Origin: Nitrosopumilus sp.
GTDB taxonomy: Archaea; Thermoproteota; Nitrososphaeria; Nitrososphaerales; Nitrosopumilaceae
Length of the DNA stretch: 64,000 nt
Assembly: GCA_965223425.1 (NCBI GenBank)
Contig: OZ245003.1
Span: forward strand, 544,001 to 608,000
Direction: 5' to 3'
In this document: positions 3-50,881 of the stretch, one piece after another
Position numbering within the stretch: position 1 is the stretch's first letter
How the letters are laid out: every line of letters starts with the position of its first letter
Notes under the pieces: model-generated
The model's input: the letters and a program-made list of their open reading frames with translations, nothing else
Database searches by the model: none
Told to the model about the DNA's origin: nothing
Made by a program: the position numbers and the translations under genes

Positions 3-3000
3 ATCAACGCATCATACAGCATCCCCGCAGCATCCTGCACAGACCACAAAGACGGCGACATCACCAACACCGGGATTCTAACTGCCATCTCGTCTGGAGG
101 CCAGCCAGTCGATACAATAGACACCTCCTCTGCAGGCACATACGATATAACGTACTCCTGCTCAGACTCTACCGGCAACACAGTAGAGCACAACGTGACA
201 GTCACAATCCGGGCTGCCGAAGTTGACAACACGCCGCCTCACATAGTGCTAAAGACGCCGCCCCTGACCCTGTTTGTTCCGGCCGGAGCCGCCTTTGCAG
301 ATGCCGATCCCGGCGCCCTCTGCATTGATGGCCAGGACGGAACCACAGAAAACACGATCACCGTGGATGTCACCGCACTTGACACGGCCGTTCTTGGCAA
401 CCACACGGTGACGTACTCCTGCACGGATTCAGGAGGCCTCCCATCCAACACCATATCAAGGACAGTCAGCGTGTACGGATTCACCGTAAACGGAAACACT
501 ACCGACTTTGCAACTGACATCACCACCTCTGATAAATACGAGCCATACGCAATCCTAGACATTACGAATATCAAGAACGCGTCACCCAGCACAAAGTATT
601 ACGATACAGACGGGCAAGACACCGCCCCCTTTAACGGAACAACGCTCCAGGCGGGAACCTGGAGCGTGACGTATACCGTCTCTGGCCACGACGACGTGTC
701 AGATCCGATCAACTTTGAAATCGAGGAAATCATAACCGTGGCTACTGCACCGCCGGACGGCAACGTCCCCCCAACTGCGAGAATCAGCGCGCCTGCCACC
801 GCAGACGAGGGAGCAACAGTAACCCTTGACGGGACCGGCTCGACAGACACTGACGGCACCATATCATCATACGCGTGGACCACCGACGATGCGTCCATCG
901 CAATAACTGATGCTGACCGGCCAACTGCATCATTTACGGCGCCCCAGGTCACAGAAGACACTCCTCTGCTCATCACGCTGCGTGTAACTGACAACCAAGG
1001 CGCTCCAGGCTCTGCACAGTATACCCTGATCATAACTGACAGCGAGTCTCCTGTAGTACCTGACACCACGCCTCCAACATTTACGGTAGACGGCCACACA
1101 GGCGACTTTGAGACGTCCCTAACAGAAGGCCAGACCTACAGGAACGGCAAGATAGATAACATCAACGAGACTGGCAGCCATCCGACCAGCACGGAGATAA
1201 GGTACTACAGCGGCACCGGCGATGTCATCACCACCACTGACGAAAACGAGATCAACTCCATTAACAATACCAGGCCTGCCATCGGAGGCTACACCATACA
1301 GTACCGCGTCTCTGACTCGGCCGTTTCACCAAACACCCACACAATCACAGAGACACTCACCGTGCGCGCACCTGACACGGTAACCATAGGGGCAATCGTC
1401 TCGACTACCGGCTCCATCTCGTCACTTGGCATACCTGCAAATGACGCCATACACCTGGCAGTAAACGACTTTAACGACAGATACCTTGCGCCAAAGGAGG
1501 CCGCATGGAGGCTTGCAGTGTCTGGGTATGATGACGGGTCTACTTCTGAGGGCGCAATTGCAGCACTGGAACTGCTTGCAGGCAGCAACATAACCTCCAT
1601 TGTGGGGCCCCTCACAAGCGATGCGCTGTCTGCAGTAAAGGGCCACGCCCTGTTTGATGAGCCGCCAAGGCTTGCCATAAGCTACGCATCCACTGCGCCT
1701 GCGGAGGATCTCAAGCAGAAGGACGACCGCGTCTTTAGGACAGTCCCTGATGATTCCAACACAGTCAGTGTATACGTCAGCCTCTTTGAGGCAGACTCCA
1801 TCGATTACGTGATTCCGGTGTTCCGCAACGACGCGTGGGGGATAGCACTGAACCGGACCCTTGCAGATGAAATTGATGATCATAACAATAACAACAACAA
1901 CAACAACGAAATAACCGTACACGGCGGAATACTGTACGACCCTGACACCGTGTCACTTTCTGCCAACACAACGCTTGCCTTGCTGAATGACACGCTAAGC
2001 CATGATTCCGTCAGTGAAAAGGCCCCCGCAGTGGTGGTGTTCGGATTTAGCGAGACCCTTGACATACTCGACGAGGCTGCAGCCACTGCAAACCTGCCTG
2101 CAGCAAAGTGGTACGGCAGCGACGCCGTGGCGCCATCAAAGCTGCTTGAGGGCAACACCCCACAAGACGAGAATCGCAGGGCATTCCTTGAGCGCACCGA
2201 CTATAACGTGCTCACCCTTGCAATAGACCAAAACGAGGCAAACAAGAGGATAGACAGCTCTGTGGACAACGCTGACGTATACTCTTATGCGGCATACGAC
2301 GCAGTATACATACTCGGCACTGCCATACACCTCAACGGCGGCCCTGCAGGCAATATGGTCAACGAGGGCCTGATTGGCAACATCACGCAGGTAGCAGACA
2401 ACGCAAACGGGCACTACACAGACCCTGCCATGGGCAACACCGAGCTCAACGAGTACGGCGACCTGAAGCAGGCTGATTACTTTGTCCTCTCCCTTGATCC
2501 TGGCAACGACAGAACCCCCGCATCCTTTGAGCCAGAATTCCGGTATGATCACTCATCAGGCACCCTTGGGAGCCTTGTCTCCTCTGGCGGCGGTGGCAGC
2601 AGCGGAGACGTCTCTGCCCCCTCAATCCGCACGGGCTTTGATGCAAACCAGTACCCCCTGGTATACGACGGGGTAAAGTACGGCCCTGACACGATTGACT
2701 CTCCCCACACTGCCACGATACGCGCAGGCAGCGGCGAGAGGCTTTTCAGCACCCTCACAGTATACGAGGACGGCGGGGCGCAAAACGTGCGGCACGTCGA
2801 CATGTTTGTCGCACACGACGGCAGGACAATACACAACGACGGCACGGAAACCCACGTGACCTACGATTCGGGCAACGTCCGGATAACTGATCCGCACGGC
2901 CTTATTGCCAGCGCCACTGTGGATGCGTCTGCCATTGATGCCACAAAGGCGCAGTTTGAGTTTGCCATAACCTTTGCCAAGAAGGTCCCGCTCTCTGACG

Positions 3001-3494
3001 TGCTGTACCGCCTGTGGGACACCGGCAGAAACGCGCTTTACATCCACCTTGAGGACGCCCTTGTGGTGTCTGAGGGAAGGAAAGGCGGCAGCAGCAGTGG
3101 CGGCGGAGGCGGTGGTGGCAGCGGAGGCGGTAGCAGCAGCAGCAGCAGTACCGCCACCCCAGCCACCGGCAGCGGCAACGGCACAACAACAACCGCTACT
3201 GGCAACGGCACCGCAGCTGACACTGCAGACAAGCAGCAGCAACAACAACCCCGACAGGGCTTTACCGCAGAACAGCTTGACACCCTAAAGCAGTGGGGCG
3301 GATTTGCGTCCCAGTCCGCATCTGACTCGCAGCTTTTAGCCCAGTTCGGAATAGAGGGCACCAGCATCCCCCCATACTTTAAGCAGACAGCAAAGTGGTT
3401 CCTCGATGCAGATGACGGCGATGGCGGCCTGACTGCGCAGGAGTTTGTCGCAGCGCTGTCGTACCTTGGGCAGCGCGGGCTGCTGCTAAACTAG
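3..3494 (+). CDS. Large modular surface protein, 5'-partial: Ig-like/DUF5011-type repeats, PKD domain, LivK-like periplasmic-binding domain, low-complexity linker, thaumarchaeal C-terminal domain
   Basis: Frame is open from position 3, upstream of the GTG at 195. Repeated C.D..DG..T...D....G.(Y/H).(I/V)TYSC.DS.G units; PKD motif VTLDGTGSTDTDGTISSYAW; TIGAIVSTTG...IVGPLTS...FRTVPDDS...YAAYDAVYILG matches type-1 binding proteins; C-terminal IPPYFKQTAKWF. Clearly more GC-rich than the flanks. Confidence 0.8.
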   Translation: MNASYSIPAASCTDHKDGDITNTGILTAISSGGQPVDTIDTSSAGTYDITYSCSDSTGNTVEHNVTVTIRAAEVDNTPPHIVLKTPPLTLFVPAGAAFADADPGALCIDGQDGTTENTITVDVTALDTAVLGNHTVTYSCTDSGGLPSNTISRTVSVYGFTVNGNTTDFATDITTSDKYEPYAILDITNIKNASPSTKYYDTDGQDTAPFNGTTLQAGTWSVTYTVSGHDDVSDPINFEIEEIITVATAPPDGNVPPTARISAPATADEGATVTLDGTGSTDTDGTISSYAWTTDDASIAITDADRPTASFTAPQVTEDTPLLITLRVTDNQGAPGSAQYTLIITDSESPVVPDTTPPTFTVDGHTGDFETSLTEGQTYRNGKIDNINETGSHPTSTEIRYYSGTGDVITTTDENEINSINNTRPAIGGYTIQYRVSDSAVSPNTHTITETLTVRAPDTVTIGAIVSTTGSISSLGIPANDAIHLAVNDFNDRYLAPKEAAWRLAVSGYDDGSTSEGAIAALELLAGSNITSIVGPLTSDALSAVKGHALFDEPPRLAISYASTAPAEDLKQKDDRVFRTVPDDSNTVSVYVSLFEADSIDYVIPVFRNDAWGIALNRTLADEIDDHNNNNNNNNEITVHGGILYDPDTVSLSANTTLALLNDTLSHDSVSEKAPAVVVFGFSETLDILDEAAATANLPAAKWYGSDAVAPSKLLEGNTPQDENRRAFLERTDYNVLTLAIDQNEANKRIDSSVDNADVYSYAAYDAVYILGTAIHLNGGPAGNMVNEGLIGNITQVADNANGHYTDPAMGNTELNEYGDLKQADYFVLSLDPGNDRTPASFEPEFRYDHSSGTLGSLVSSGGGGSSGDVSAPSIRTGFDANQYPLVYDGVKYGPDTIDSPHTATIRAGSGERLFSTLTVYEDGGAQNVRHVDMFVAHDGRTIHNDGTETHVTYDSGNVRITDPHGLIASATVDASAIDATKAQFEFAITFAKKVPLSDVLYRLWDTGRNALYIHLEDALVVSEGRKGGSSSGGGGGGGSGGGSSSSSSTATPATGSGNGTTTTATGNGTAADTADKQQQQQPRQGFTAEQLDTLKQWGGFASQSASDSQLLAQFGIEGTSIPPYFKQTAKWFLDADDGDGGLTAQEFVAALSYLGQRGLLLN

Positions 3495-7757: not shown

Positions 7758-9230
7758 TTACAGATTTTGTAAATAGTCTAGAATCAGTCTTACGCCAAAG
7801 CCGGTAGCCCCTTTTGGATTGTATGGTTTTTCTTTAGTGGCTACTTGTGTCCATGCAACCCCTGCAATGTCAATATGGGCCCATGGAGTTTTCTCAATGG
7901 CATTTTTCAAAAATGCCGCAGCTGTAATGGTTCCTGCCGCTTTACCTGTTCCAACATTTCTCATGTCTGCAACATCTGATTTTATCATGTCCATGTAGTC
8001 TTGGTTTAATGGAAGCTCCCAAACTTCTTCTGTAGTTCTCTTGGAGGACTCGTTGATTTTCTTTGTCAGTCTTTCATTGTTTGAAACCATTCCTGCAACA
8101 TTGGTGCCTAGTGCTATGATGCATGCTCCAGTTAAGGTTGCAAAATCAATGATTGTCTTTGGTGAATAGTGTTTTTCCCCATATGCTAGCGCATCAGCTA
8201 AAATCAATCTGCCTTCAGCATCCGTGTTCAGAACTTCTGCAGTCTTTCCATTGTACAACTTTATGATGTCTCCCGGCCTGTATGATTCCCCGCCTGGCAT
8301 ATTTTCCACTGATGGAATTATTCCAACAACGTTAACTGGTAGTTTTAATTCAGAAACTGATTTCATTATTCCAAGAACTGTGCATCCTCCACATTTGTCA
8401 AACTTCATCTCATCCATCTTTTCTCCCGGTTTTAATGAAATTCCTCCCGTGTCAAACGTTACTGCCTTGCCAACCAAAACAGTTGGTTTTTCGTTTCTTG
8501 ATCCTCGATTATGCTCTAAGATAATTAGTTTAGGTTCGTTTTTACTGCCTTGTCCTACTGCTGTAATTCCGCCAAAACCTCTCTTCTTTAATTCAGGTTT
8601 AGAAACTATGTTGCATTTCATGTTGTTCTTTTTAGCAATTGTTTTTGCAAAACTTGCTAATGTAGCTGGCGTACATTCATTTGGAGGCAAGTTGGCTATG
8701 CTTTTAGTAAATATTGCACCCTCTGCAACAATTTGAGCTATTTTGATTGCATTTGCAGTTTTCTTTGATTTGGCAACTATGATTGTAAGTTCTGGAGAGT
8801 TGCCTGTTTTTTCTGCCTTGAATTTATCAAATTTGTAGAGTGCCATTTTAGAACCTTCCACAATCTGACTGATTGATGAGATTTGATCAGTCACAAAACT
8901 TGGAGGCGTAATTATTGAAAATTCTTTTAGTTTTAACTCTCTTGCTTTTTGTGCAATTTTACCTGAAACAAACCTAATGGTGTCTTTTGTTAATTTTTCT
9001 TTTTTTCCTAGTCCTGCAAGTAGAATTCTTTGGGATGACTTTTTATCCGGAACTGGAATTACGCTTAATTTTCCTAATTTACCTTCCATGTCCCTTAGTG
9101 ATTGGTTGATTGCCGAGAAAGTTTTAGTATCAAATTTTCCTAATCCTGGAACTTTGTTTGAATTTTCCAGTACAAATCCACAAAGAAGCTGTGTTTTCTT
9201 TTTTGCAGAACTCTCAATTTTTACCTTCAT
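7758..9230 (-). CDS. pepA: Leucyl aminopeptidase (M17)
   Basis: GKAVTFDTGG, MKFDKCG, NTDAEGRL. Confidence 0.96.
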   Translation of the reverse strand: MKVKIESSAKKKTQLLCGFVLENSNKVPGLGKFDTKTFSAINQSLRDMEGKLGKLSVIPVPDKKSSQRILLAGLGKKEKLTKDTIRFVSGKIAQKARELKLKEFSIITPPSFVTDQISSISQIVEGSKMALYKFDKFKAEKTGNSPELTIIVAKSKKTANAIKIAQIVAEGAIFTKSIANLPPNECTPATLASFAKTIAKKNNMKCNIVSKPELKKRGFGGITAVGQGSKNEPKLIILEHNRGSRNEKPTVLVGKAVTFDTGGISLKPGEKMDEMKFDKCGGCTVLGIMKSVSELKLPVNVVGIIPSVENMPGGESYRPGDIIKLYNGKTAEVLNTDAEGRLILADALAYGEKHYSPKTIIDFATLTGACIIALGTNVAGMVSNNERLTKKINESSKRTTEEVWELPLNQDYMDMIKSDVADMRNVGTGKAAGTITAAAFLKNAIEKTPWAHIDIAGVAWTQVATKEKPYNPKGATGFGVRLILDYLQNL

Positions 9231-9266
9231 AATGAATGCCTACTTTCAAAGTCTTATTTAGATTTA

Positions 9267-9644
9267 CTAAAGATCTATTTTTTTACTATTTGTGAGCAAA
9301 CTTGATGATCTCACAAATACTGCCTTTACAGTTTTACATTCTTGCTGACAATTTTCATCCAAACCCATAGTTGATAATTTTCTTGTTTTTTTACACAAAA
9401 TTGATTTTACTAATGGAAATAAAGCTGCTCTGCCGCCGTATGCTCTTTTTTTATCTATAAACCAAAACATGTCCAAAGCTGATTCATCCAGTATTTCATT
9501 CCTAATCTTCTCTCCAAGCTCTGAATAATGTCCTACCATTGTAATTTTACCTCTGGCAAAAAACTCTACAAATTTTGCAAATTTCATGCACAAGTAACAT
9601 TGATTATCAAAAACCACAATTGGGGTAATTTCTTTTATTTCCAT
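9267..9644 (-). CDS. DUF393/DCC-like thiol-disulfide oxidoreductase family protein
   Basis: VVFDNQCYLC (DxxCxxC) at the N-terminus. Confidence 0.65.
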   Translation of the reverse strand: MEIKEITPIVVFDNQCYLCMKFAKFVEFFARGKITMVGHYSELGEKIRNEILDESALDMFWFIDKKRAYGGRAALFPLVKSILCKKTRKLSTMGLDENCQQECKTVKAVFVRSSSLLTNSKKIDL

Positions 9645-9720
9645 ATTATACTATAACGGCGATCAAATTAAAATTTTACAGAAGTAGATTTTTATTCAAT
9701 TTATAAAGATAACAATCGAG

Positions 9721-13357: not shown

Positions 13358-14377
13358 TTAACTACTAATCCATCCAAGCTTTTTGAAATACGCAAACATA
13401 ATGATTGCTGGAATTGCAGATGCAAGAATAATAATTATGAAAGTTGTAAGCGATCCCAAAAACATAGAATCGTCCCCGATCGCAGGTAAGTTGACGTTCA
13501 TTCCATAAAACGTTCCAATTACAGTTGATGGGATTGCCAGTGTGAAGATAATGGTTAGTAAGCCAAGTACTTTGTTTGTCTTTTCAGTACTTAACACAAA
13601 GTCTGTGTCTTTATAAATTTCCATAGTTTCTCTTGATTCCTCTAGTGTTTCAATTACTTTGTCTATGTGATCAATCACATCATCAAAATATAATGCAAGT
13701 TCTTCATCCTCTCTTTCTGAAAATCTTTCAACATTTTTTGCAATCTCTAAAACAAATTTCTTTAATGGATTGGCTATTCTTCTTAGCCTGTTAATTTCCC
13801 TTCTAAGTAGGGCAATACTTCTTGCTACTGGTTTTGCCTCATCAAACACTCTGTCCTCCATTTCATCCAAATTTGCAATAATCTTTCTAGAAGTATGTAG
13901 AAGATCATCTACAAGCACATCTATAATTTCATGAAGCAATGATCCAGAAGATTCTCCTAACAACCTGTCTTTTTTTTGCTGGTCTGAACCTGTTTTGCAT
14001 ATTTCTGCTAACTCTACCAGGGGCTTTAGATCTCCTTGGTGTACTGTAACTATGATATCCTTGCCAAGAAATATGGATAGCTGACTGTTTTTTGATATTC
14101 CTATTTTTTGTGCTAATGGCGGGAAATGTAGAATTACAAAGAAATGATCATTATAGCTATCCAATTTTGGAAGTTCAAATTTAGTCATACAGTCTTCAAT
14201 GTTTAATTCATTAAAATTGAATTTTTCAGCTAATTTCTCAACATCATTTCTGTCTGGATTTTGTAAATTCATCCATGTGAATTTCTCTCCTTGAATGGTC
14301 TCAATTTTCCTTTCAATGGAATCCTCTATTGATTTTCTACCTGAACGCAATCTTTTGGTGATGAATCCTTTTCTCAA
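13358..14377 (-). CDS. corA: CorA Mg2+/Co2+ transporter
   Basis: FYGMN motif between two C-terminal TM helices. Confidence 0.93.
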   Translation of the reverse strand: MRKGFITKRLRSGRKSIEDSIERKIETIQGEKFTWMNLQNPDRNDVEKLAEKFNFNELNIEDCMTKFELPKLDSYNDHFFVILHFPPLAQKIGISKNSQLSIFLGKDIIVTVHQGDLKPLVELAEICKTGSDQQKKDRLLGESSGSLLHEIIDVLVDDLLHTSRKIIANLDEMEDRVFDEAKPVARSIALLRREINRLRRIANPLKKFVLEIAKNVERFSEREDEELALYFDDVIDHIDKVIETLEESRETMEIYKDTDFVLSTEKTNKVLGLLTIIFTLAIPSTVIGTFYGMNVNLPAIGDDSMFLGSLTTFIIIILASAIPAIIMFAYFKKLGWISS

Positions 14378-14481
14378 GTCGAAAAGTACCCTAATACAGC
14401 AAATTTAAAGCGATCGTTATCGCTGTATGTAAAAATTATTGTCAAGTTGTAAAATTAAAAAATGCTCTTGAATTGAGGCTG

Positions 14482-14562
14482 CTACTTAAATGGAAGCAAA
14501 TAATTCATTCCAACCCATGTTAATCCAATGGATATTGCCATTGCAAGCCACCAATACCTCAT
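14482..14562 (-). CDS. Possible 26-aa hydrophobic peptide
   Basis: MRYWWLAMAISIGLTWVGMNYLLPFK, a single TM-like segment; very short. Confidence 0.3.
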   Translation of the reverse strand: MRYWWLAMAISIGLTWVGMNYLLPFK

Positions 14563-14653
14563 ACTTGAAATCCCAACTGGTTGATAATAAATCTAGTCTA
14601 ACCCTCATCAAAAGTTAAAGATTATTACAGGATAAACAGTTTTTCTTTTTTGT

Positions 14654-14726
14654 GGCCTTCGTAGTACAGTGGTTAGTATAGAGGATTGTGGATCCTCGGA
14701 CAGGAGTTCGATTCCCCTCGAAGGCC
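14654..14726 (+). tRNA. tRNA-His(GTG)
   Basis: Acceptor stem GCCTTCG/CGAAGGC with encoded G-1 and C73; anticodon arm GAGGA-TTGTGGA-TCCTC; GTTCGATTC T-loop. Confidence 0.95.
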
Positions 14727-14977
14727 CTCTTAGTTTACTTTAAGATCACACATGTGTATGTGCTGCTTATGAATCTGAAACTTTGCTCAACTGGCCTTAT
14801 GATTATGATTCTTTACTAGCCAATGTTTCCACTTGAACCTGTTTTGAACATCAAAAGGGAATTATAAAATTAATTCAAGACTCTAGCAGTTAGTCCGGCA
14901 GACTTGAACGTATTTACTGGTTAATTGGATGCCAAATAGACACGAATTCTAATATCTCATAACAAATCATCATTGTT

Positions 14978-15470
14978 GTGGTGAGCCAATCAGTAGTTAT
15001 TGGAATTGCCATTGGGTATTTTTTGCAGGATTAGTAGTAGGTATTGCAATTTTTCAGGCTTTGGATCAACTAATTCAAACTACAAATAAAGAATTAGAAA
15101 GACACAAGATGGCAGAACAACTTGCAGTACAACATCTTGAAACATTTGATGAGTTAGATTTTGATGTTTTTACAGATTAGAAATGGGAAAGATTACATGA
15201 AAGCCACTCACAGGATATTGTAGTACACTGGCCAGATGGACAGACTACAGAAGACATTGAACCTCACATTGAGGATTTGAAAGCTATGTTTGATGGTCAC
15301 CAGATACTAGAATAGAACAACATTCAACCAAATAGCATCAGGACAATGGACAAAGTGATTGGAGTTATTGAGGGCGCATTTACAGAACCTATACCATTAC
15401 CAGATGGAACTTCAATTCCACCAACTGGAAAATCTTACAAACTTACAATGACTACAGTTACCGAATATTG
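14978..15470 (+). pseudogene. SnoaL-like ester/polyketide cyclase pseudogene
   Basis: QHLETFDELDFDVFTD*KWERLHESHSQDIVVHWPDG...PLPDGTSIPPTGKSYKLTM: in-frame TAG, frameshifts, 3' truncation. Boundaries are approximate. Confidence 0.75.
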
Positions 15471-15491
15471 GCTGTCATGAAAGTCTAGTTT

Positions 15492-15995
15492 TTATTTTCG
15501 AACTCTCAATTTTGCTTTTTTTAATGCAATAATTCCAGGTATTATGAAGGCCATTCCATAACTAATTTCCACCAAGCTACTAATCAATATTATCCAGTCA
15601 TTTTCTTGTTCAAGTTGTTCAAGAATTAATACGGACTGAAGACCACCCAGTATTAAAGGAGAACCAAAAAATATCAAAACTCCTGCAGCTATAATGAGCA
15701 TATATTTTCTAGTTGGGATTTTTTTTACTCTCAAAATTATATTTGATACAATAAATATCAGCGAGATAACTCCCAACATAATTGGCCCTGCAACAAATAT
15801 TGAATTAAACGCTAAGAGCATTCCAGGAAAATCACGTGCATAACTAGGAGACAAGTCTGAATCAAGATCAACTGCACCTCCACCATAATCTGTATCTGAT
15901 TCTAATCTCAAGTTTATCGAATATACAAAAGCAGTAAAAATAACCAAGGATAAAAAAATACAAAATGCAATTATTGTTAAAAATTTAATTTTCAT
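15492..15995 (-). CDS. Multi-pass membrane protein (cassette-array gene)
   Basis: 167 aa, about 4 TM segments; starts MKIKFL and ends RK* in junction motifs. Confidence 0.8.
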   Translation of the reverse strand: MKIKFLTIIAFCIFLSLVIFTAFVYSINLRLESDTDYGGGAVDLDSDLSPSYARDFPGMLLAFNSIFVAGPIMLGVISLIFIVSNIILRVKKIPTRKYMLIIAAGVLIFFGSPLILGGLQSVLILEQLEQENDWIILISSLVEISYGMAFIIPGIIALKKAKLRVRK

Positions 15996-16446
15996 TTTCT
16001 AACTCCATAGAAGTTCGTTTTTCAAAAATAATACCTACACATTCCTCAAATTTTTCTGTAGATACTTCATCAGGTAATCCCACATCGTTAATAATATAAA
16101 ATCCATCAAATTCTTCATCAAGTAAATTAGAATATCTGGTGAGATGTTCAAGTATTAGCTGGTTGCATCCAAGGCTATATAGGTCATTTTGGTTGCACCA
16201 TTCTTGACAGTAATCCTGATCGGTAATCTATTGAGAATCTGTTTCATTATCCTGTATTTCTGGATGCCAAAGAATTTCAAAATATTTCTGAATTTCATAT
16301 GTTACATATGGACCACATCCGCCATGTGAACCCAACGAACTAGGAGTTGGGCCGTCAACTAAAATACATACACCATGACCAGTAACCCCTATCCAACTTA
16401 CAAAAATTAAAGAAATTACAATTATTATTTTGATTCTTGTTTTCAT
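15985..16446 (-). pseudogene. Secreted protein (cassette-array gene) with a single in-frame TAG
   Basis: MKTRIKIII... stops at TAG 16228-16230, but the frame continues ITDQDYCQEWC...KRTSMELENEN* to 15985 (154 codons in total). Confidence 0.7.
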
Positions 16447-16449
16447 TTT

Positions 16450-16575
16450 CTATGTTCCCCAGAAAAAATCCCAAAAACCAAGAAGTTTACTGCAATGTTT
16501 ACACCTTATTTGACCATTAATTTCAATAAAAGAATGAAAGATACCAATTTCGCACAAAAATTTAGCTAGACTCAT
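16450..16575 (-). CDS. 41-aa Cys/His microprotein (possible zinc ribbon)
   Basis: MSLAKFLCEIGIFHSFIEINGQIRCKHCSKLLGFWDFFWGT; its stop abuts the AAAATG junction. Confidence 0.5.
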   Translation of the reverse strand: MSLAKFLCEIGIFHSFIEINGQIRCKHCSKLLGFWDFFWGT

Positions 16576-16920
16576 GCTGTTTCGTTTGAATATATCCTTA
16601 TAACAAATTCTACTCTTGAATTCAAGTTTGAGATTCAGACATATGTGTTATAGTTGGCTCACAGGCCCCTCATTGTTGTAAAATTTCAACTGTTTGTTTG
16701 ACATCTCCACCTGAATCTGCATATGCCTTTAATTTGATTTGTTGAATAGTCATCAGCATTCTTTCCAATCTCAACAATTTTGACAGTCAAAAATTCTCGC
16801 TCAATACAAATATCTAAAAGTTTTTCAGTCTTTTTCATCCCTTCAACCGTAGGCTGTAATTGAGACAATGCAGTGATTACAGGATTCTTGATTTATTTGA
16901 GGTCCCGTTAAACCAAATGG

Positions 16921-17310
16921 CTAATCATAATATTCATCAACAAAACAGTCTTTTTCTGAAAGATATGATAATACATTTTCTCTAACTGTGTATTGGCTTT
17001 GGATTCCATTGGGAGTGCAATGGAGAAAAATATTTGATGGAATGCCAAACTGATATGTTATCTTTAGCACTACCCATTGATCTTCTGACAGACCAGATTG
17101 AAATCCAATTTGATACGAATATGCTCCATCTGGGAATACCAAGACACCATAATGGCCATATTTTTCATAAAACATGTTGACTTCGGGGATTTGTTTTAGT
17201 TCTTCGACATGATTACCTGGCCAATCATCATATGGTTTTATTCTTACAGTAAATACAAGAATTACTATTACAAAAACAATTGCAATTATTATCAAAAATC
17301 TAGTCTTCAT
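16921..17310 (-). CDS. Secreted/membrane-anchored protein (cassette-array gene)
   Basis: MKTRFLIII plus hydrophobic signal; 129 aa. Confidence 0.8.
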   Translation of the reverse strand: MKTRFLIIIAIVFVIVILVFTVRIKPYDDWPGNHVEELKQIPEVNMFYEKYGHYGVLVFPDGAYSYQIGFQSGLSEDQWVVLKITYQFGIPSNIFLHCTPNGIQSQYTVRENVLSYLSEKDCFVDEYYD

Positions 17311-18350
17311 TTTCTTTTTCTCAAAAAAATCATTAAACCAAAAAAAGAACCCGTACCAATTACTATTGCAATAACTATTGTACTTGGGTAAAATCCAGAT
17401 TCCTGAAATATGGGAGTTTCAGAACCAAATTCCATACCAGGAGCATATTTGTAATCACATAATTTTCGATTATCATACCAAGTTCCATCTAACTTGTCAC
17501 ACTCGGATTTATTATTTACCAAAAGAATACCTGTTTGAATATCATAATTTCCTATTCTTTCACATTGATCGTTTTGTATCATACCAGAACCTCCCCGACA
17601 TAATGGTTTTTCATATTCATCTAATTTAGCATGTTGTGTTTGAGATTCATTAATTATTCTTGAAAAATTAACATTTGATTTATGTTCAGCATATACGGCA
17701 TCTTCTACTAAAAGTCTAGTACCTCTTGATTCATCCGTTATTGTAAAGAAAACTTTTGATTCAAAAATTCCACTAGCATTATCAGTTTCAGACATTGTTA
17801 GCTGTATGCCATTATGATCAATATCGGACCACACATGAATATCAAAAGAATCTATTTTTTTGTCATCTAGGTTCATATATTTATCAATTATTCTAACAAT
17901 ACCCGCATCAGTTGACAAATAGTTATGTTTATCCCACTTTATTTTTACCCCGTCATCAATTGGCGCAAGCCATTTATCACAAAGAGAATCATCTCGATGG
18001 TTTTCAAAGCTGGATATGGTTTGAGAATCTACCCATTTGACCATTCTATATTGTTTCATACCATCTACCACAAACTCTGTACAAATTATTGCAGGCAATT
18101 GTAATTCTACATCTTCACTATCCCAGTTTCTATCAGACATTTGCCAATCCCCATAGTTGAACTCAATGTTCCTGGCGTAATTTTCCATAATTGATTTTTC
18201 AGTAAGGGGAGGATCAGTAACTACAGAAAAAGAGTCAAAGCACGGTCCTGCAGTTCCAAATAATGGAGCAGCGCAAGATGCATAGGAGTATGGAATTGCT
18301 GCAAATCCAATCATTACAACTACAAGTAATATTGAAAGTCTAGTTTTCAT
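17307..18350 (-). CDS. Secreted protein with S-layer-like domain and C-terminal anchor (cassette-array gene)
   Basis: MKTRLSILL signal; VWSD...ETDNASGIFE motif also seen in the 54470 ORF; C-terminal TM plus RKRK. Confidence 0.82.
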   Translation of the reverse strand: MKTRLSILLVVVMIGFAAIPYSYASCAAPLFGTAGPCFDSFSVVTDPPLTEKSIMENYARNIEFNYGDWQMSDRNWDSEDVELQLPAIICTEFVVDGMKQYRMVKWVDSQTISSFENHRDDSLCDKWLAPIDDGVKIKWDKHNYLSTDAGIVRIIDKYMNLDDKKIDSFDIHVWSDIDHNGIQLTMSETDNASGIFESKVFFTITDESRGTRLLVEDAVYAEHKSNVNFSRIINESQTQHAKLDEYEKPLCRGGSGMIQNDQCERIGNYDIQTGILLVNNKSECDKLDGTWYDNRKLCDYKYAPGMEFGSETPIFQESGFYPSTIVIAIVIGTGSFFGLMIFLRKRK

Positions 18351-18673
18351 TTTACCAATCTTGGATTAAATCGGTTTTTTGAGGAATAGTATTCAAACAT
18401 GGATTCTGATACAATATTTTCACATTCAACTCTAATTGTATAATAACCGTTTTCAAACATGGCCCGTCCTCCACAGGCAAATATAAAAGTCTCAGTTTCA
18501 TCAGGAGTTGTCTTTAGTATTGTTGAATCAATTTTACGACTAGTGGGACCATGAATACTAAGAGTTGCAGCATTTACAAAATGATGATTAAACCATACAT
18601 GAATTTTTATTTCATCGTCATCAGCGTAAAATTGTTTATCAATTGAGATTACAATTCTAGAATCTTCTTTCAT
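18347..18673 (-). CDS. Small Ig-like/beta-sandwich protein (cassette-array gene)
   Basis: IDKQFY..DDEIKI...GYYTIRVE pattern; ATGA overlap with the next gene. Confidence 0.7.
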   Translation of the reverse strand: MKEDSRIVISIDKQFYADDDEIKIHVWFNHHFVNAATLSIHGPTSRKIDSTILKTTPDETETFIFACGGRAMFENGYYTIRVECENIVSESMFEYYSSKNRFNPRLVK

Positions 18674-18720
18674 TTTCTCTTATCCCAAATTATAATTCCA
18701 GAAATTATTGTACAGGGGAT
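18670..18720 (-). pseudogene. Orphan 3' tail of a lost cassette gene
   Basis: Reads IPCTIISGIIIWDKRK*, like the TM+RKRK* end of the 17307 gene, and overlaps the next ATG. Confidence 0.5.
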
Positions 18721-18864
18721 CTTTTTGAATTTGAATCATTCTTATCGTCATCACCATCTAATTTCCTTGATCGTGGCACATAAGATTACGCCCATAACTA
18801 TGCCCAAAATTGTAAGGGTCTTGAATTAATTTGACAAGTCACCTCGAGGGCCTTTTCATTTTAA

Positions 18865-19212
18865 TTAAAAAATACCAAATTTGCTAGACTCCATTTCTTC
18901 TTTAATGGCAAGTCTGAACCGTGGAGACTTGTTTTCTGTATTCTTGGCTAACCAAGAAAGAAATTTTTTTTCCATTCCCTTTCCCTTCAGTCTATCAAAA
19001 TCTGCTCCCATCATCTCTGCTAACTTTTCAACCAATGATCTGTTTACGCTTAACACAAAAAAATGCCAGCCAAAAGCAAATTCCGAATCAGTCATCACAA
19101 AGTCTTCTTGACCGTGGACCATTTCTTCTAAAAGGGATAATTGACGCGTCAGCGCTTTGCTTGTTTTGTCATAATCCACTGCAGATACATTGATGTTGAT
19201 TCTCCCATCCAT
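18865..19212 (-). CDS. Hypothetical protein
   Basis: 115-aa ORF with host-like codon usage. Confidence 0.75.
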   Translation of the reverse strand: MDGRININVSAVDYDKTSKALTRQLSLLEEMVHGQEDFVMTDSEFAFGWHFFVLSVNRSLVEKLAEMMGADFDRLKGKGMEKKFLSWLAKNTENKSPRFRLAIKEEMESSKFGIF

Positions 19213-19243
19213 GATTTTTTCACGTCAAAACAAAATAAAAGGC

Positions 19244-20014
19244 TTATACTTGTTCCTCTTTCAAAAGATGTTCAAAATCTATGTCAAAATGCATTTTCAT
19301 TATGTTGATATACGTTTGAATTGATTCCGGAATTTCTTCACCACATGCTACCCCTAATTTTTTTGCGTTAATCCAAATTACCAGCGTTTGTATAATTGTT
19401 AAAAATCTATCGTTGCCAATCTCTGGGGATCCGATAGATTTTGTGTATCTTTCAGCAAACTCCCATGCTGTTACAAAATCTACGCATTTTACACCAAAAA
19501 CTGCTAGTAACTGCTCCTGCATACTTGATGCCTTTTTGAATGGTATTTTGTTGATAATATATGGGAAATCTACCTTGTCTGGAATGCAATCTGGAAGCGG
19601 CCCCCAAATTGTAATTACTTTTGTCTCTGGTTTTAGTTTTTCAAATTTTTCCAACATCTGATTAATTATGTCCCCATCTGTAAACCAAAACAAAATTACT
19701 GAGGCATCTGACAAGTCTGATTCTTCAATATTTTCACAGATTAACTGTCCTTGAATGTTTTTCTCTTCAAGACTTTCTTTTGCAAGTTGGATTTTTTTAG
19801 GATTATTGTCTATCCCTACAGCTTTTTTTACTTTGAACTGGTTTACTGCCATCTCAATTCCTTTTTCATTACCACAGCCCAAATGATAGAAAATGTCTGC
19901 CTCCCCTAAATTTACAAATTTAAAAATTTCATTAAATGCCTTTTCTGGCAGCTGAACATCCTCTCCACTAAGCAAGTTTTTTGGAAGCGTTTCCAAATAT
20001 TCCTCAATTTTCAA
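19244..20014 (-). CDS. Class I SAM-dependent methyltransferase-like protein
   Basis: FYHLGCGN, AVGID motifs. Confidence 0.8.
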   Translation of the reverse strand: MKIEEYLETLPKNLLSGEDVQLPEKAFNEIFKFVNLGEADIFYHLGCGNEKGIEMAVNQFKVKKAVGIDNNPKKIQLAKESLEEKNIQGQLICENIEESDLSDASVILFWFTDGDIINQMLEKFEKLKPETKVITIWGPLPDCIPDKVDFPYIINKIPFKKASSMQEQLLAVFGVKCVDFVTAWEFAERYTKSIGSPEIGNDRFLTIIQTLVIWINAKKLGVACGEEIPESIQTYINIMKMHFDIDFEHLLKEEQV

Positions 20015-50215: not shown

Positions 50216-50881
50216 AACTATCTTGCCTAACCCGGTTCTGTGAAGTTATCGGGAGTTACATGTCAATTCCCAAAATGTACAAGCCTCCAAACCGCAAGAT
50301 ATTCGCTGAAGGCGATAAAGCCAATATCACAGAAATATGCGCCGAACTCTGACCTAATGGATATGGCGGCTACATTCACAAAGATGGCCAATCATTGCAT
50401 CAAGATAGGGTTGAAAGAAGACACTCACAATATGAAGAGGCTGTCCATGTTATGTTGTCATGAATTACGTAACTATGACATTTTATCAACATACAAACTA
50501 AATGCAATATCAAGGGCTGCAGGCATATTATCAAACAGAAAACAATCAGTCAAACGAGGTGTCAGAATAAGAGGCCCAATAGTCAAAAATCCCTTTATGA
50601 CAAACTGTTACGGCATAAAACACAACGGTGCACTACTAACAATCCCATACAAGAAACATAACCCAATCAACATTTTACTCAACGATCACGCCCAAAAAAT
50701 CCTGTCTGATCCCGCCCTGACGGTGCGCTCGTTTTCACTGACTGCCCTCAACATCAGTCTTTGTGTTTCAAAAAAAGTACAAGAGATAGAGTGCACCAAG
50801 AAAGTTGGAATAGACAGAAACCTAAGAAATGTGACGTGTGGGAACGGGGAAGGGGTGACAGTCTACAAGACAAACAAACTG

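Follow-up and report, generated by a model that had tools for sequence, protein, structure and literature searches.

In a Nitrosopumilus sp. genome that encodes archaeal AmoA, a stretch of 64,000 nt (hereafter the window; GCA_965223425.1, contig OZ245003.1, positions 544,001 to 608,000) carries a minus-strand array of putative surface-protein genes between 15478 and 18720, in which successive genes are joined by one recurring sequence. This junction is a punctuation module of about 35 nt that recurs in surface-gene arrays of one family of ammonia-oxidizing archaea. An initial annotation, made from the sequence alone, had described the array as a candidate gene-cassette system of integron type. 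The explanation toward which we lean, with moderate confidence, is a different one: the junction would serve as a translational-coupling site and signal-peptide start that doubles as a short homology patch for the exchange of whole genes. Ammonia-oxidizing archaea are among the most abundant microbes, and their flexible genes, mostly unannotated, are believed to influence how the cell surface meets viruses and grazers.

Direct reading of the window found all six minus-strand sites that the initial annotation had reported within 3.2 kb, each where it had been placed, although they are not equivalent. Four bear gene starts. Junction 1 (gtAAAATGAAAACTAGACTTTCA, 18333–18354) combines the stop (TGA) of a 108-aa gene with the start of a 347-aa gene. 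Junction 2 (agAAAATGAAGACTAGA, 17299–17314) is an ATGA overlap in which the upstream tail LRKRK is the same DNA in the +1 frame, and it is 90% identical over 43 nt to the RKRK junctions of two relatives' loci (L039 and L041). Junction 3 (agAAAATGAAAACAAGA, 16435–16450) has ACA, hence no TAG in the +2 frame, and carries TAG AAA immediately 5′ of its ATG, while junction 4 (agAAAATGAAAATTAAA, 15984–15999), which encodes MKIK, lies partly under the ELENEN end of the frame that precedes it. The site at 18673 has only the upstream half and ATGAAAG in common with the others, and that at 15495 (AAAATAAAAACTAGACTTTCA, 15478–15498) is an orphan terminal junction, since ATA replaces ATG and no open reading frame (ORF) follows; it retains a TAA stop for the upstream gene. 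True ATGA overlaps occur at 18350 and 17310, and the start at 15995 overlaps by 11 nt a frame continuing from a 72-aa ORF.

The motif is concentrated in the array. Scanned over the window and its shuffles with up to three mismatches, the pattern GAAAATGAAAACTAGA gave seven window matches against 2.28 expected (seven or more in none of 100 shuffles), five of which fall at 15484–18354. A tighter pattern gave five matches against 0.38 expected, all inside the array locus. Across the whole assembly (2.64 Mb), four of five junction matches are those of this locus, and the fifth, at C1:250426, is a truncated 43-codon ORF. MKTR begins 2 of the genome's 2562 ORFs of at least 120 aa, so the motif is rare at starts outside arrays; together, the pattern counts and this rarity argue that it is neither a product of chance nor an ordinary property of starts in this genome. 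An independent repeat search placed the four gene-start junctions in a single 54-nt family and found 15478–15498 to be 95% identical (20 of 21 bases; family D8) to 18333–18353, a 21-nt near-identical repeat that brackets the MKTR part of the array.

Beyond the window, DNA searches returned gene-sized matches in 17 of 24 genomes of the same genus and in none of 16 from other genera, together with many further matches of 40–65 nt that cover only junction and signal-peptide codons. Among the genus's 121 genomes, 64 contain the core pattern AAAATGAARACNAGA, with at least four copies in 24 and a maximum of 19; the copies are clustered and co-oriented, and a reversed-pattern control gave 0–1 per strand. 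In an order-wide scan of 201 genomes, clusters appeared only in family f1 (genus g1, genome G247 of genus g20, and genomes G273 and G284 of genus g22), and genomes outside f1 had at most two matches each, mostly with ACA instead of ACT. The scan of Nitrosopumilaceae relatives proposed with the cassette reading thus did recover arrays. We retrieved 27 array regions of relatives and called genes in them with a simple ORF heuristic; 121 of the 460 genes called begin with MK, then T, I, or N, then R, K, or N. A second conserved start module, gttagtcatattATGAAATATTTTGT (MKYFVI...), was seen to head larger secreted proteins in the same arrays (L013, L027, L031, L034, and others).

The anatomy of the junction points to a function in translation. 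The module consists of (G)GAG (often), an A/T-rich spacer, AGAAA, ATG AAA ACT AGA, and the first hydrophobic codons. Across 93 MKTR starts, conservation extends from about −12 to +22 without a dyad, and past codon 7 only the second codon positions are conserved (T-rich), giving the hydrophobic segment. An upstream ORF ends between −9 and +10 in 80 of these starts, so that stop and start of co-directional genes lie close together: the stop is the TGA of an ATGA overlap in 34, the commonest form; the TAG at +8 (aCTAGa) in 22; and a codon within 9 nt before the ATG in 24, while an upstream ORF is lacking in 13. In 39 of the 93, every frame contains a stop. Two frequent upstream tails, (W)RKRK and ELENEN, represent one DNA sequence read in two frames, so conservation 5′ of the ATG does not serve any single protein. 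The recurrent K or RK gene ends recorded earlier are therefore real, but they are junction DNA read in another frame.

Codon choice identifies what is preserved. At Thr3, 84 of the 93 starts use ACT, a codon whose share in the bodies of these genes is 42%. Arg4 is encoded by AGA or AGG in all 93 and never by CGN, against 37% CGN in the bodies, a count that, like that of AAAA, is biased by the motif-based choice of loci; the ACN count is free of this ascertainment artifact because that position is unconstrained in the locus-choosing pattern. Lys AAA/AAG and Arg AGA/AGG (80:13 in each case) match the body background. With ACT predominant, CGN excluded, and the third positions of Lys and Arg at background, the element preserved is exactly the TAG of the +2 frame, and of the 71 junctions that do not use this TAG as their stop, 62 keep ACT. 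The suggestion that synonymous MKTR positions are more conserved than the protein requires was borne out for ACT/TAG but not for the third positions of Lys2 and Arg4. A general CTAG bias behind the ACT preference was ruled out, as the genome-wide observed/expected ratio of CTAG is 1.05, neither avoided nor enriched. A Shine-Dalgarno core lies at −18 to −4 in 38 of the 93 junctions, with a peak at −13, against 5–7 of 93 at control offsets, and it fits the 3′ end of the genome's 16S rRNA (...CACCUCCU). The primary role of the junction as stop/start punctuation with a Shine-Dalgarno-like element had been missed by the initial annotation. Most array products have the charged MKTR start followed by a hydrophobic stretch, probably a Sec signal or signal anchor, as had been ascribed to most genes; the 108-aa product has no hydrophobic N-terminus.

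Comparison of arrays reveals exchange gene by gene. Arrays of different species have only gene-sized similar segments in common. In genome G125, a two-gene segment (1127 bp, 97% identity) occurs in two arrays on different contigs; each of its ends falls in a junction core, and an orphan junction stands behind one of the copies. Genes of 149 and 172 aa common to G073 and G125 (89–93%) likewise end at −5 to +13 of junctions beside unrelated neighbors; all four segments of 89–97% identity end within this interval. When every segment with a length of 200 bp or more and an identity of 75% or more was considered, 74 of 192 ends lay no farther than 20 nt from a core (random positions gave 5.2, and no more than 15 in 1000 trials), and 45 lay at other gene edges. 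Neighbors of 10 orthologue-like between-genome pairs were unrelated in all assessable cases (9/9 upstream and 7/7 downstream, 16/16 together). The 347-aa gene, found in 16 metagenome loci, has different partners in nearly every one; the 108-aa gene, which is upstream of it in the window, follows the 347-aa family gene downstream in L038. Homology of the window's 347-aa gene to L038, L039, L041, and L044 begins at 18352–18353, 2–3 nt 5′ of the ATG, and ends near residue 236, making the C-terminal third a different module. Orphan junctions account for 17 of the 107 strict cores in the relatives' loci and are followed by 6–31 codons. Gene order is thus not fixed, and homology breakpoints map to the junction. 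The proposal that genes move as units by recombination at a short site was right as to the pattern, and its integron-like component was not sustained.

Our preferred explanation, coupling combined with a homology patch, would account for this pattern as follows. The module supplies a start and the positively charged MKTR N-terminus of a predicted signal peptide or signal anchor, and it offers stops to any upstream gene: TGA in ATGA, TAG in aCTAGa, and in many cases a TAG or TAA immediately 5′ of the ATG. A close stop and start in an unstructured, A-rich context with a Shine-Dalgarno-like GGAG may couple successive genes by termination-reinitiation, a suggestion based on the junction anatomy and on published work on that process (PMC6728339, PMC10666635). 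An identical sequence at every boundary and across genomes could act as a homology patch for general recombination, allowing in-register deletion, duplication, and exchange of whole genes with no dedicated recombinase; cassette-like gene-by-gene mosaics would then arise because the junction serves as such a patch at each boundary. The unused TAG and the three-frame stops would be retained since genes often acquire new upstream partners and, with them, another frame in use.

Several observations weigh against this explanation. Recombination is not confined to the junction, because 73 of the 192 segment ends lie inside genes, and, whatever the mechanism, selection for intact genes would in part produce breakpoints at gene boundaries. 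Upstream flanks of junctions are as similar between genomes (0.476) as within them (0.474), the observed value being reached in 174 of 300 permutations. A clear Shine-Dalgarno core is present in only 41% of junctions. The 28 array loci, totaling 294 kb, were picked through the motif itself, and the genomes compared are one per species, with no within-species gain or loss event seen. As a separate candidate, local gene conversion between junctions was rejected: it left no sign in the flanks, which are equally alike within and between genomes.

An ordinary, fast-evolving family of paralogues in operons, whose junction is kept by signal-peptide and initiation needs alone and has no role in recombination, and whose mosaic stems from the usual birth, loss, and divergence of genes, would fit the conservation of second positions only after codon 7, the enrichment of Shine-Dalgarno cores, the lack of within-genome homogenization, and the presence of a second conserved start in the same arrays. 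It would also fit the shuffled domains of the gene bodies. The array genes had been held to share no body similarity, and the window's five array products indeed have no mutual BLASTP matches, but 96 of 114 such proteins across the genus resemble in their bodies one or more other proteins of the retrieved loci. We nevertheless consider this account rather unlikely. It does not predict the use of ACT by 62 of the 71 junctions with an unused TAG, compared with 42% in bodies, nor the prevalence of ACA in singletons outside f1; segments of 89–97% identity stop inside the core with unrelated DNA adjacent, orphan junctions exist, and upstream tails that read the same DNA in two frames indicate that the sequence before the ATG is not kept for one protein. 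A stronger form of the preferred explanation would make the junction a selected exchange-and-punctuation site, behind which any gene could be inserted after any other, in any frame, and still be terminated, restarted, and exported, with a cassette pool shared across arrays and species and maybe an unrecognized enzyme. We regard this as unlikely; if true, it would constitute an integron-like platform that uses an in-frame coding junction in place of attC and IntI. A dedicated site-specific cassette system, in which a trans-acting recombinase excises and inserts single genes as circles at the core without attC, strikes us as improbable, even though breakpoints that fall within a 15–20 nt core, orphan junctions at array ends (in the relatives and at 15478–15498), the D8 repeat around the MKTR part of the array, the G125 segment copied between arrays with both ends in junctions, and a nucleotide constraint on ACT/TAG in excess of protein need would all suit it. 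As first noted, no recombinase adjoins the array: the nearest integrase gene (PF00589, 26535–27566) lies 8 kb off, past GluRS and other housekeeping genes, and tblastn with this integrase gave no match below E 3 in the 28 array loci. Pfam searches of 150 of the 173 neighboring proteins (at least 100 aa, without an MK-motif start) found no family in more than two, and no recombinase or transposase is among the 25 families listed for array neighbors (36 more were matched). The core has no dyad beyond CTAG, so the weak symmetry reported around that tetranucleotide amounts to the tetranucleotide itself, and eight 81-nt junction stretches fold on either strand no better than shuffles (z −0.92 to +0.66), which agrees with the reported absence of attC hairpins. 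Background ratios at the synonymous positions of Lys2 and Arg4 are unexpected for a protein-binding site, and segment ends inside genes are numerous. Assembled contigs of four runs (contigs, not raw reads) yielded no credible joint of a circle or a deletion; two joints (X5) have sides of 23–31 nt, are out of register with the junctions, and come from contigs of other depths. One of the contigs covers the locus without a single difference and may represent the origin of the window's DNA, and a search of sequencing runs listed no RNA run containing the locus. A site-specific, integron-like enzyme system is thus unsupported.

Least probable, and in our estimation very much so, is that an integrated mobile element or provirus carries the array as cargo and that the junction is a feature of that element's genes. 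This possibility arises from the placement of the window's array, a remnant, within an insertion of 4.1 kb (14728–18838) next to a plus-strand tRNA-His (GTG) gene at 14655–14727 (ARAGORN; Rfam RF00005, 59.9 bits). The insertion, which contains the array, fragmentary plus-strand ORFs, and a multicopy 75-nt element, is absent from G017 and G006, where the CorA/tRNA-His flank abuts the flank with a 115-aa gene and a methyltransferase. It begins exactly at the 3′ end of the tRNA: left-flank alignments to both genomes stop at 14726–14729. The G017 alignments of the two flanks, the left reaching to 1187340 (window 14726) and the right beginning at 1187327 (window 18839), overlap by 14 nt. The same site holds a 270-bp gap in G006, whereas G007 has 2.7 kb there and G021 has 54.6 kb. 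An imperfect inverted repeat of 33 nt (pair I1, 14859–14891 and 18808–18840, 79% complementary) lies near both ends, and at the right edge a degenerate plus-strand direct repeat of the tRNA 3′ end (18835–18852) matches at just 14 of 18 bases, counted by eye. A further, weak lead toward a mobile origin is that the atlas neighbors of a Cys-rich protein often leading the arrays are mostly viral hypothetical proteins. However, the window's ORFs and Pfam searches gave no integrase or other mobile-element gene inside 14728–18838, and no recombinase recurs near arrays. Since tRNA genes are present in just 2 of the 27 relatives' loci, the tRNA link is not general for arrays, and those of G017 stand among housekeeping genes such as ALAD and PGK.

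Integrons have been reported in Archaea (10.1101/2022.02.06.479319). Integrons and the present arrays have in common co-oriented, tightly packed, unrelated genes that differ gene by gene between genomes, with breakpoints at a repeated boundary. The IntI beside the array, the attC hairpin, and attI have no counterpart here. The boundary of the present arrays instead lies in coding sequence, being at once a start, a signal peptide, and the tail of the upstream gene, and the products are nearly all secreted or membrane proteins. The arrays thus lack two defining features of integrons, an adjacent integrase and attC hairpins. Termination-reinitiation where a stop codon overlaps a start codon (ATGA, TGATG) has been described for archaea and bacteria (PMC6728339, PMC10666635), likewise for co-directional genes whose stop and start overlap or lie a few bases apart. 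The present case differs in that one sequence of about 17–35 nt is reused at dozens of boundaries between unrelated genes, with stops in up to three frames and synonymous-site conservation, and in that coupling is here a prediction.

Mycoplasma variable lipoprotein loci are also comparable, as tandem surface genes with a conserved 5′ end, that is, a conserved expression and signal-peptide module with highly variable bodies subject to recombination. They encode related proteins and vary by inversion or expression-site switching, whereas the present genes all share one apparent polycistronic orientation and have bodies that are largely unrelated or composed of shuffled domains.

Also similar are the hypervariable genomic islands of marine Thaumarchaeota, rich in cell-surface and defense genes (PMC3990693), and VARTIG, a hypervariable Ig-domain module of Thermococcales (PMC8416519). 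Both are flexible surface or Ig-like loci that differ between close relatives, and the parts of these reports available to us describe neither a shared junction sequence nor gene-wise exchange at one. No description of the junction was found in the literature searched, including passages of PMC3990693 and PMC6563490 and with supplementary gene lists aside. We classify the array type as a hypervariable surface-gene island with an unusual reusable coding junction. If the preferred explanation holds, a reusable stop-start-signal sequence would explain how such islands diversify with no visible mobile-element machinery, which makes the system of real interest for archaeal genome evolution even though the window's copy is decaying. 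For annotation, tails ending in RKRK or ENEN and very short MKTR ORFs can be treated as by-products of the junction; the motif offers a simple marker with which to find such arrays, and the module represents a natural three-frame stop and restart linker.

The genes of the window's array, all on the minus strand, document this decay. The first, a 108-aa gene without a signal peptide (18347–18673), starts within ...agagaaaATGAAAG and ends at the TGA of the ATGA overlap; its orthologue in G023 (L017, 4918–5244) is 66% identical and has different neighbors. The second (17307–18350) encodes the 347-aa protein, predicted to be a type I membrane protein: an N-terminal signal helix leads into an S-layer-type beta domain, and RKRK comes after a C-terminal transmembrane helix. 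Pfam and NCBIfam searches with the array's ORFs returned nothing above cutoffs. The 347-aa protein has 145 homologues, and the names among the 120 listed are all "hypothetical protein", from Nitrosopumilus or Nitrosarchaeum. Its moderately confident AlphaFold2 model (mean pLDDT, the predicted local distance difference test, of 66.9) contains helices at residues 2–17 and 322–346 and beta domains, and the best Foldseek match of the model is the N. maritimus S-layer protein (8c8k_A, E 8.5e-10). A family profile (A1) of the protein matches residues 1503–1595 of the same structure with E 1.7e-27. This homology to a domain of a solved S-layer protein was found for the 347-aa gene only, and the domain recurs in large surface proteins of relatives.

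The remaining genes are mostly damaged. A 129-aa gene (16921–17310) is truncated, with homologues of 217 aa (G017) and 425 aa (G100) and homology over residues 31–123 only. Mostly absent intergenic space had been claimed for the array, and the overlaps at 18350, 17310, and 15995 agree; the apparent 474-bp spacer at 16447–16920 is not intergenic, since it holds a frameshifted internal fragment of another array gene (16728–16926), corresponding in two frames to residues 51–117 of a 258-aa L033 protein (tblastn E 1.3e-15). Next, the 72-aa ORF (16228–16446) and the open frame behind it form one 153-codon gene (15986–16446) that ends in ELENEN and aligns end to end with a 152-aa G017 orthologue. 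It is broken by an in-frame TAG at 16228–16230, where the intact orthologue has W (in a read-through alignment with X at the stop), and its DNA is 82% identical to that of G017. The last gene (15492–15995) encodes a 167-aa protein with four hydrophobic segments, identified by eye, that ends in RVRK; it is 66% identical to a 170-aa G007 protein, from which it differs in N-terminus and neighbors. The nonsense mutation in one gene, the truncation of another, the fragment of a third, and the dead junction at the end mark the window's array as a decaying remnant. Within it, a 41-aa minus-strand ORF with a CxxC motif (16450–16575) ends in a TAG directly 5′ of the AAA ATG of the 16446 junction.

Around the array, three short consecutive plus-strand ORFs (15090–15480) converge on its end and resemble pieces of one broken gene; they have DNA matches in G003 and G023, and Pfam found nothing in the last piece. 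The element of about 75 nt at 18712–18792, directly upstream of the array, has at least six further genome copies (79–85% identity), contains a TGATGA box, shows very high contig depth with many loose ends, and is not recognized by Rfam. Over 14000–19500, Rfam reported only the tRNA and a chance-level RF00180 hit at the 17310 junction (19.6 bits; gathering threshold 41).

Three further observations concern the relatives' arrays. A family of small Cys-rich proteins (77–86 aa) without a signal peptide has eight members in seven loci (L015, L018, L021, L024, L025, L027, and L028), often as the first gene ahead of an MKTR gene run; it has no Pfam match, and its atlas neighbors are all hypothetical and largely viral. 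In L016 (G007), identical inverted ORF pairs (2428–3156 and 8922–9650) flank a 6 kb segment in which a surface protein of 1167 aa and a homologue of the 167-aa gene from the window are encoded, which may be a composite transposon-like arrangement. Array neighbors also include two serpin genes (best E 3.4e-115) and two BNR-repeat proteins. Elsewhere in the window's genome, a 60-nt sequence ending in GGATCACCTCCC has about 20 near-identical copies on contig C1 of G000, one at about window position 50570, and certain ORF starts recur (MCSL 27 times, MYKQ 23, MPVR 21, and MKYN 20). Together, these look like an expanded insertion-sequence family, which may explain the large genome and its patchy GC content.

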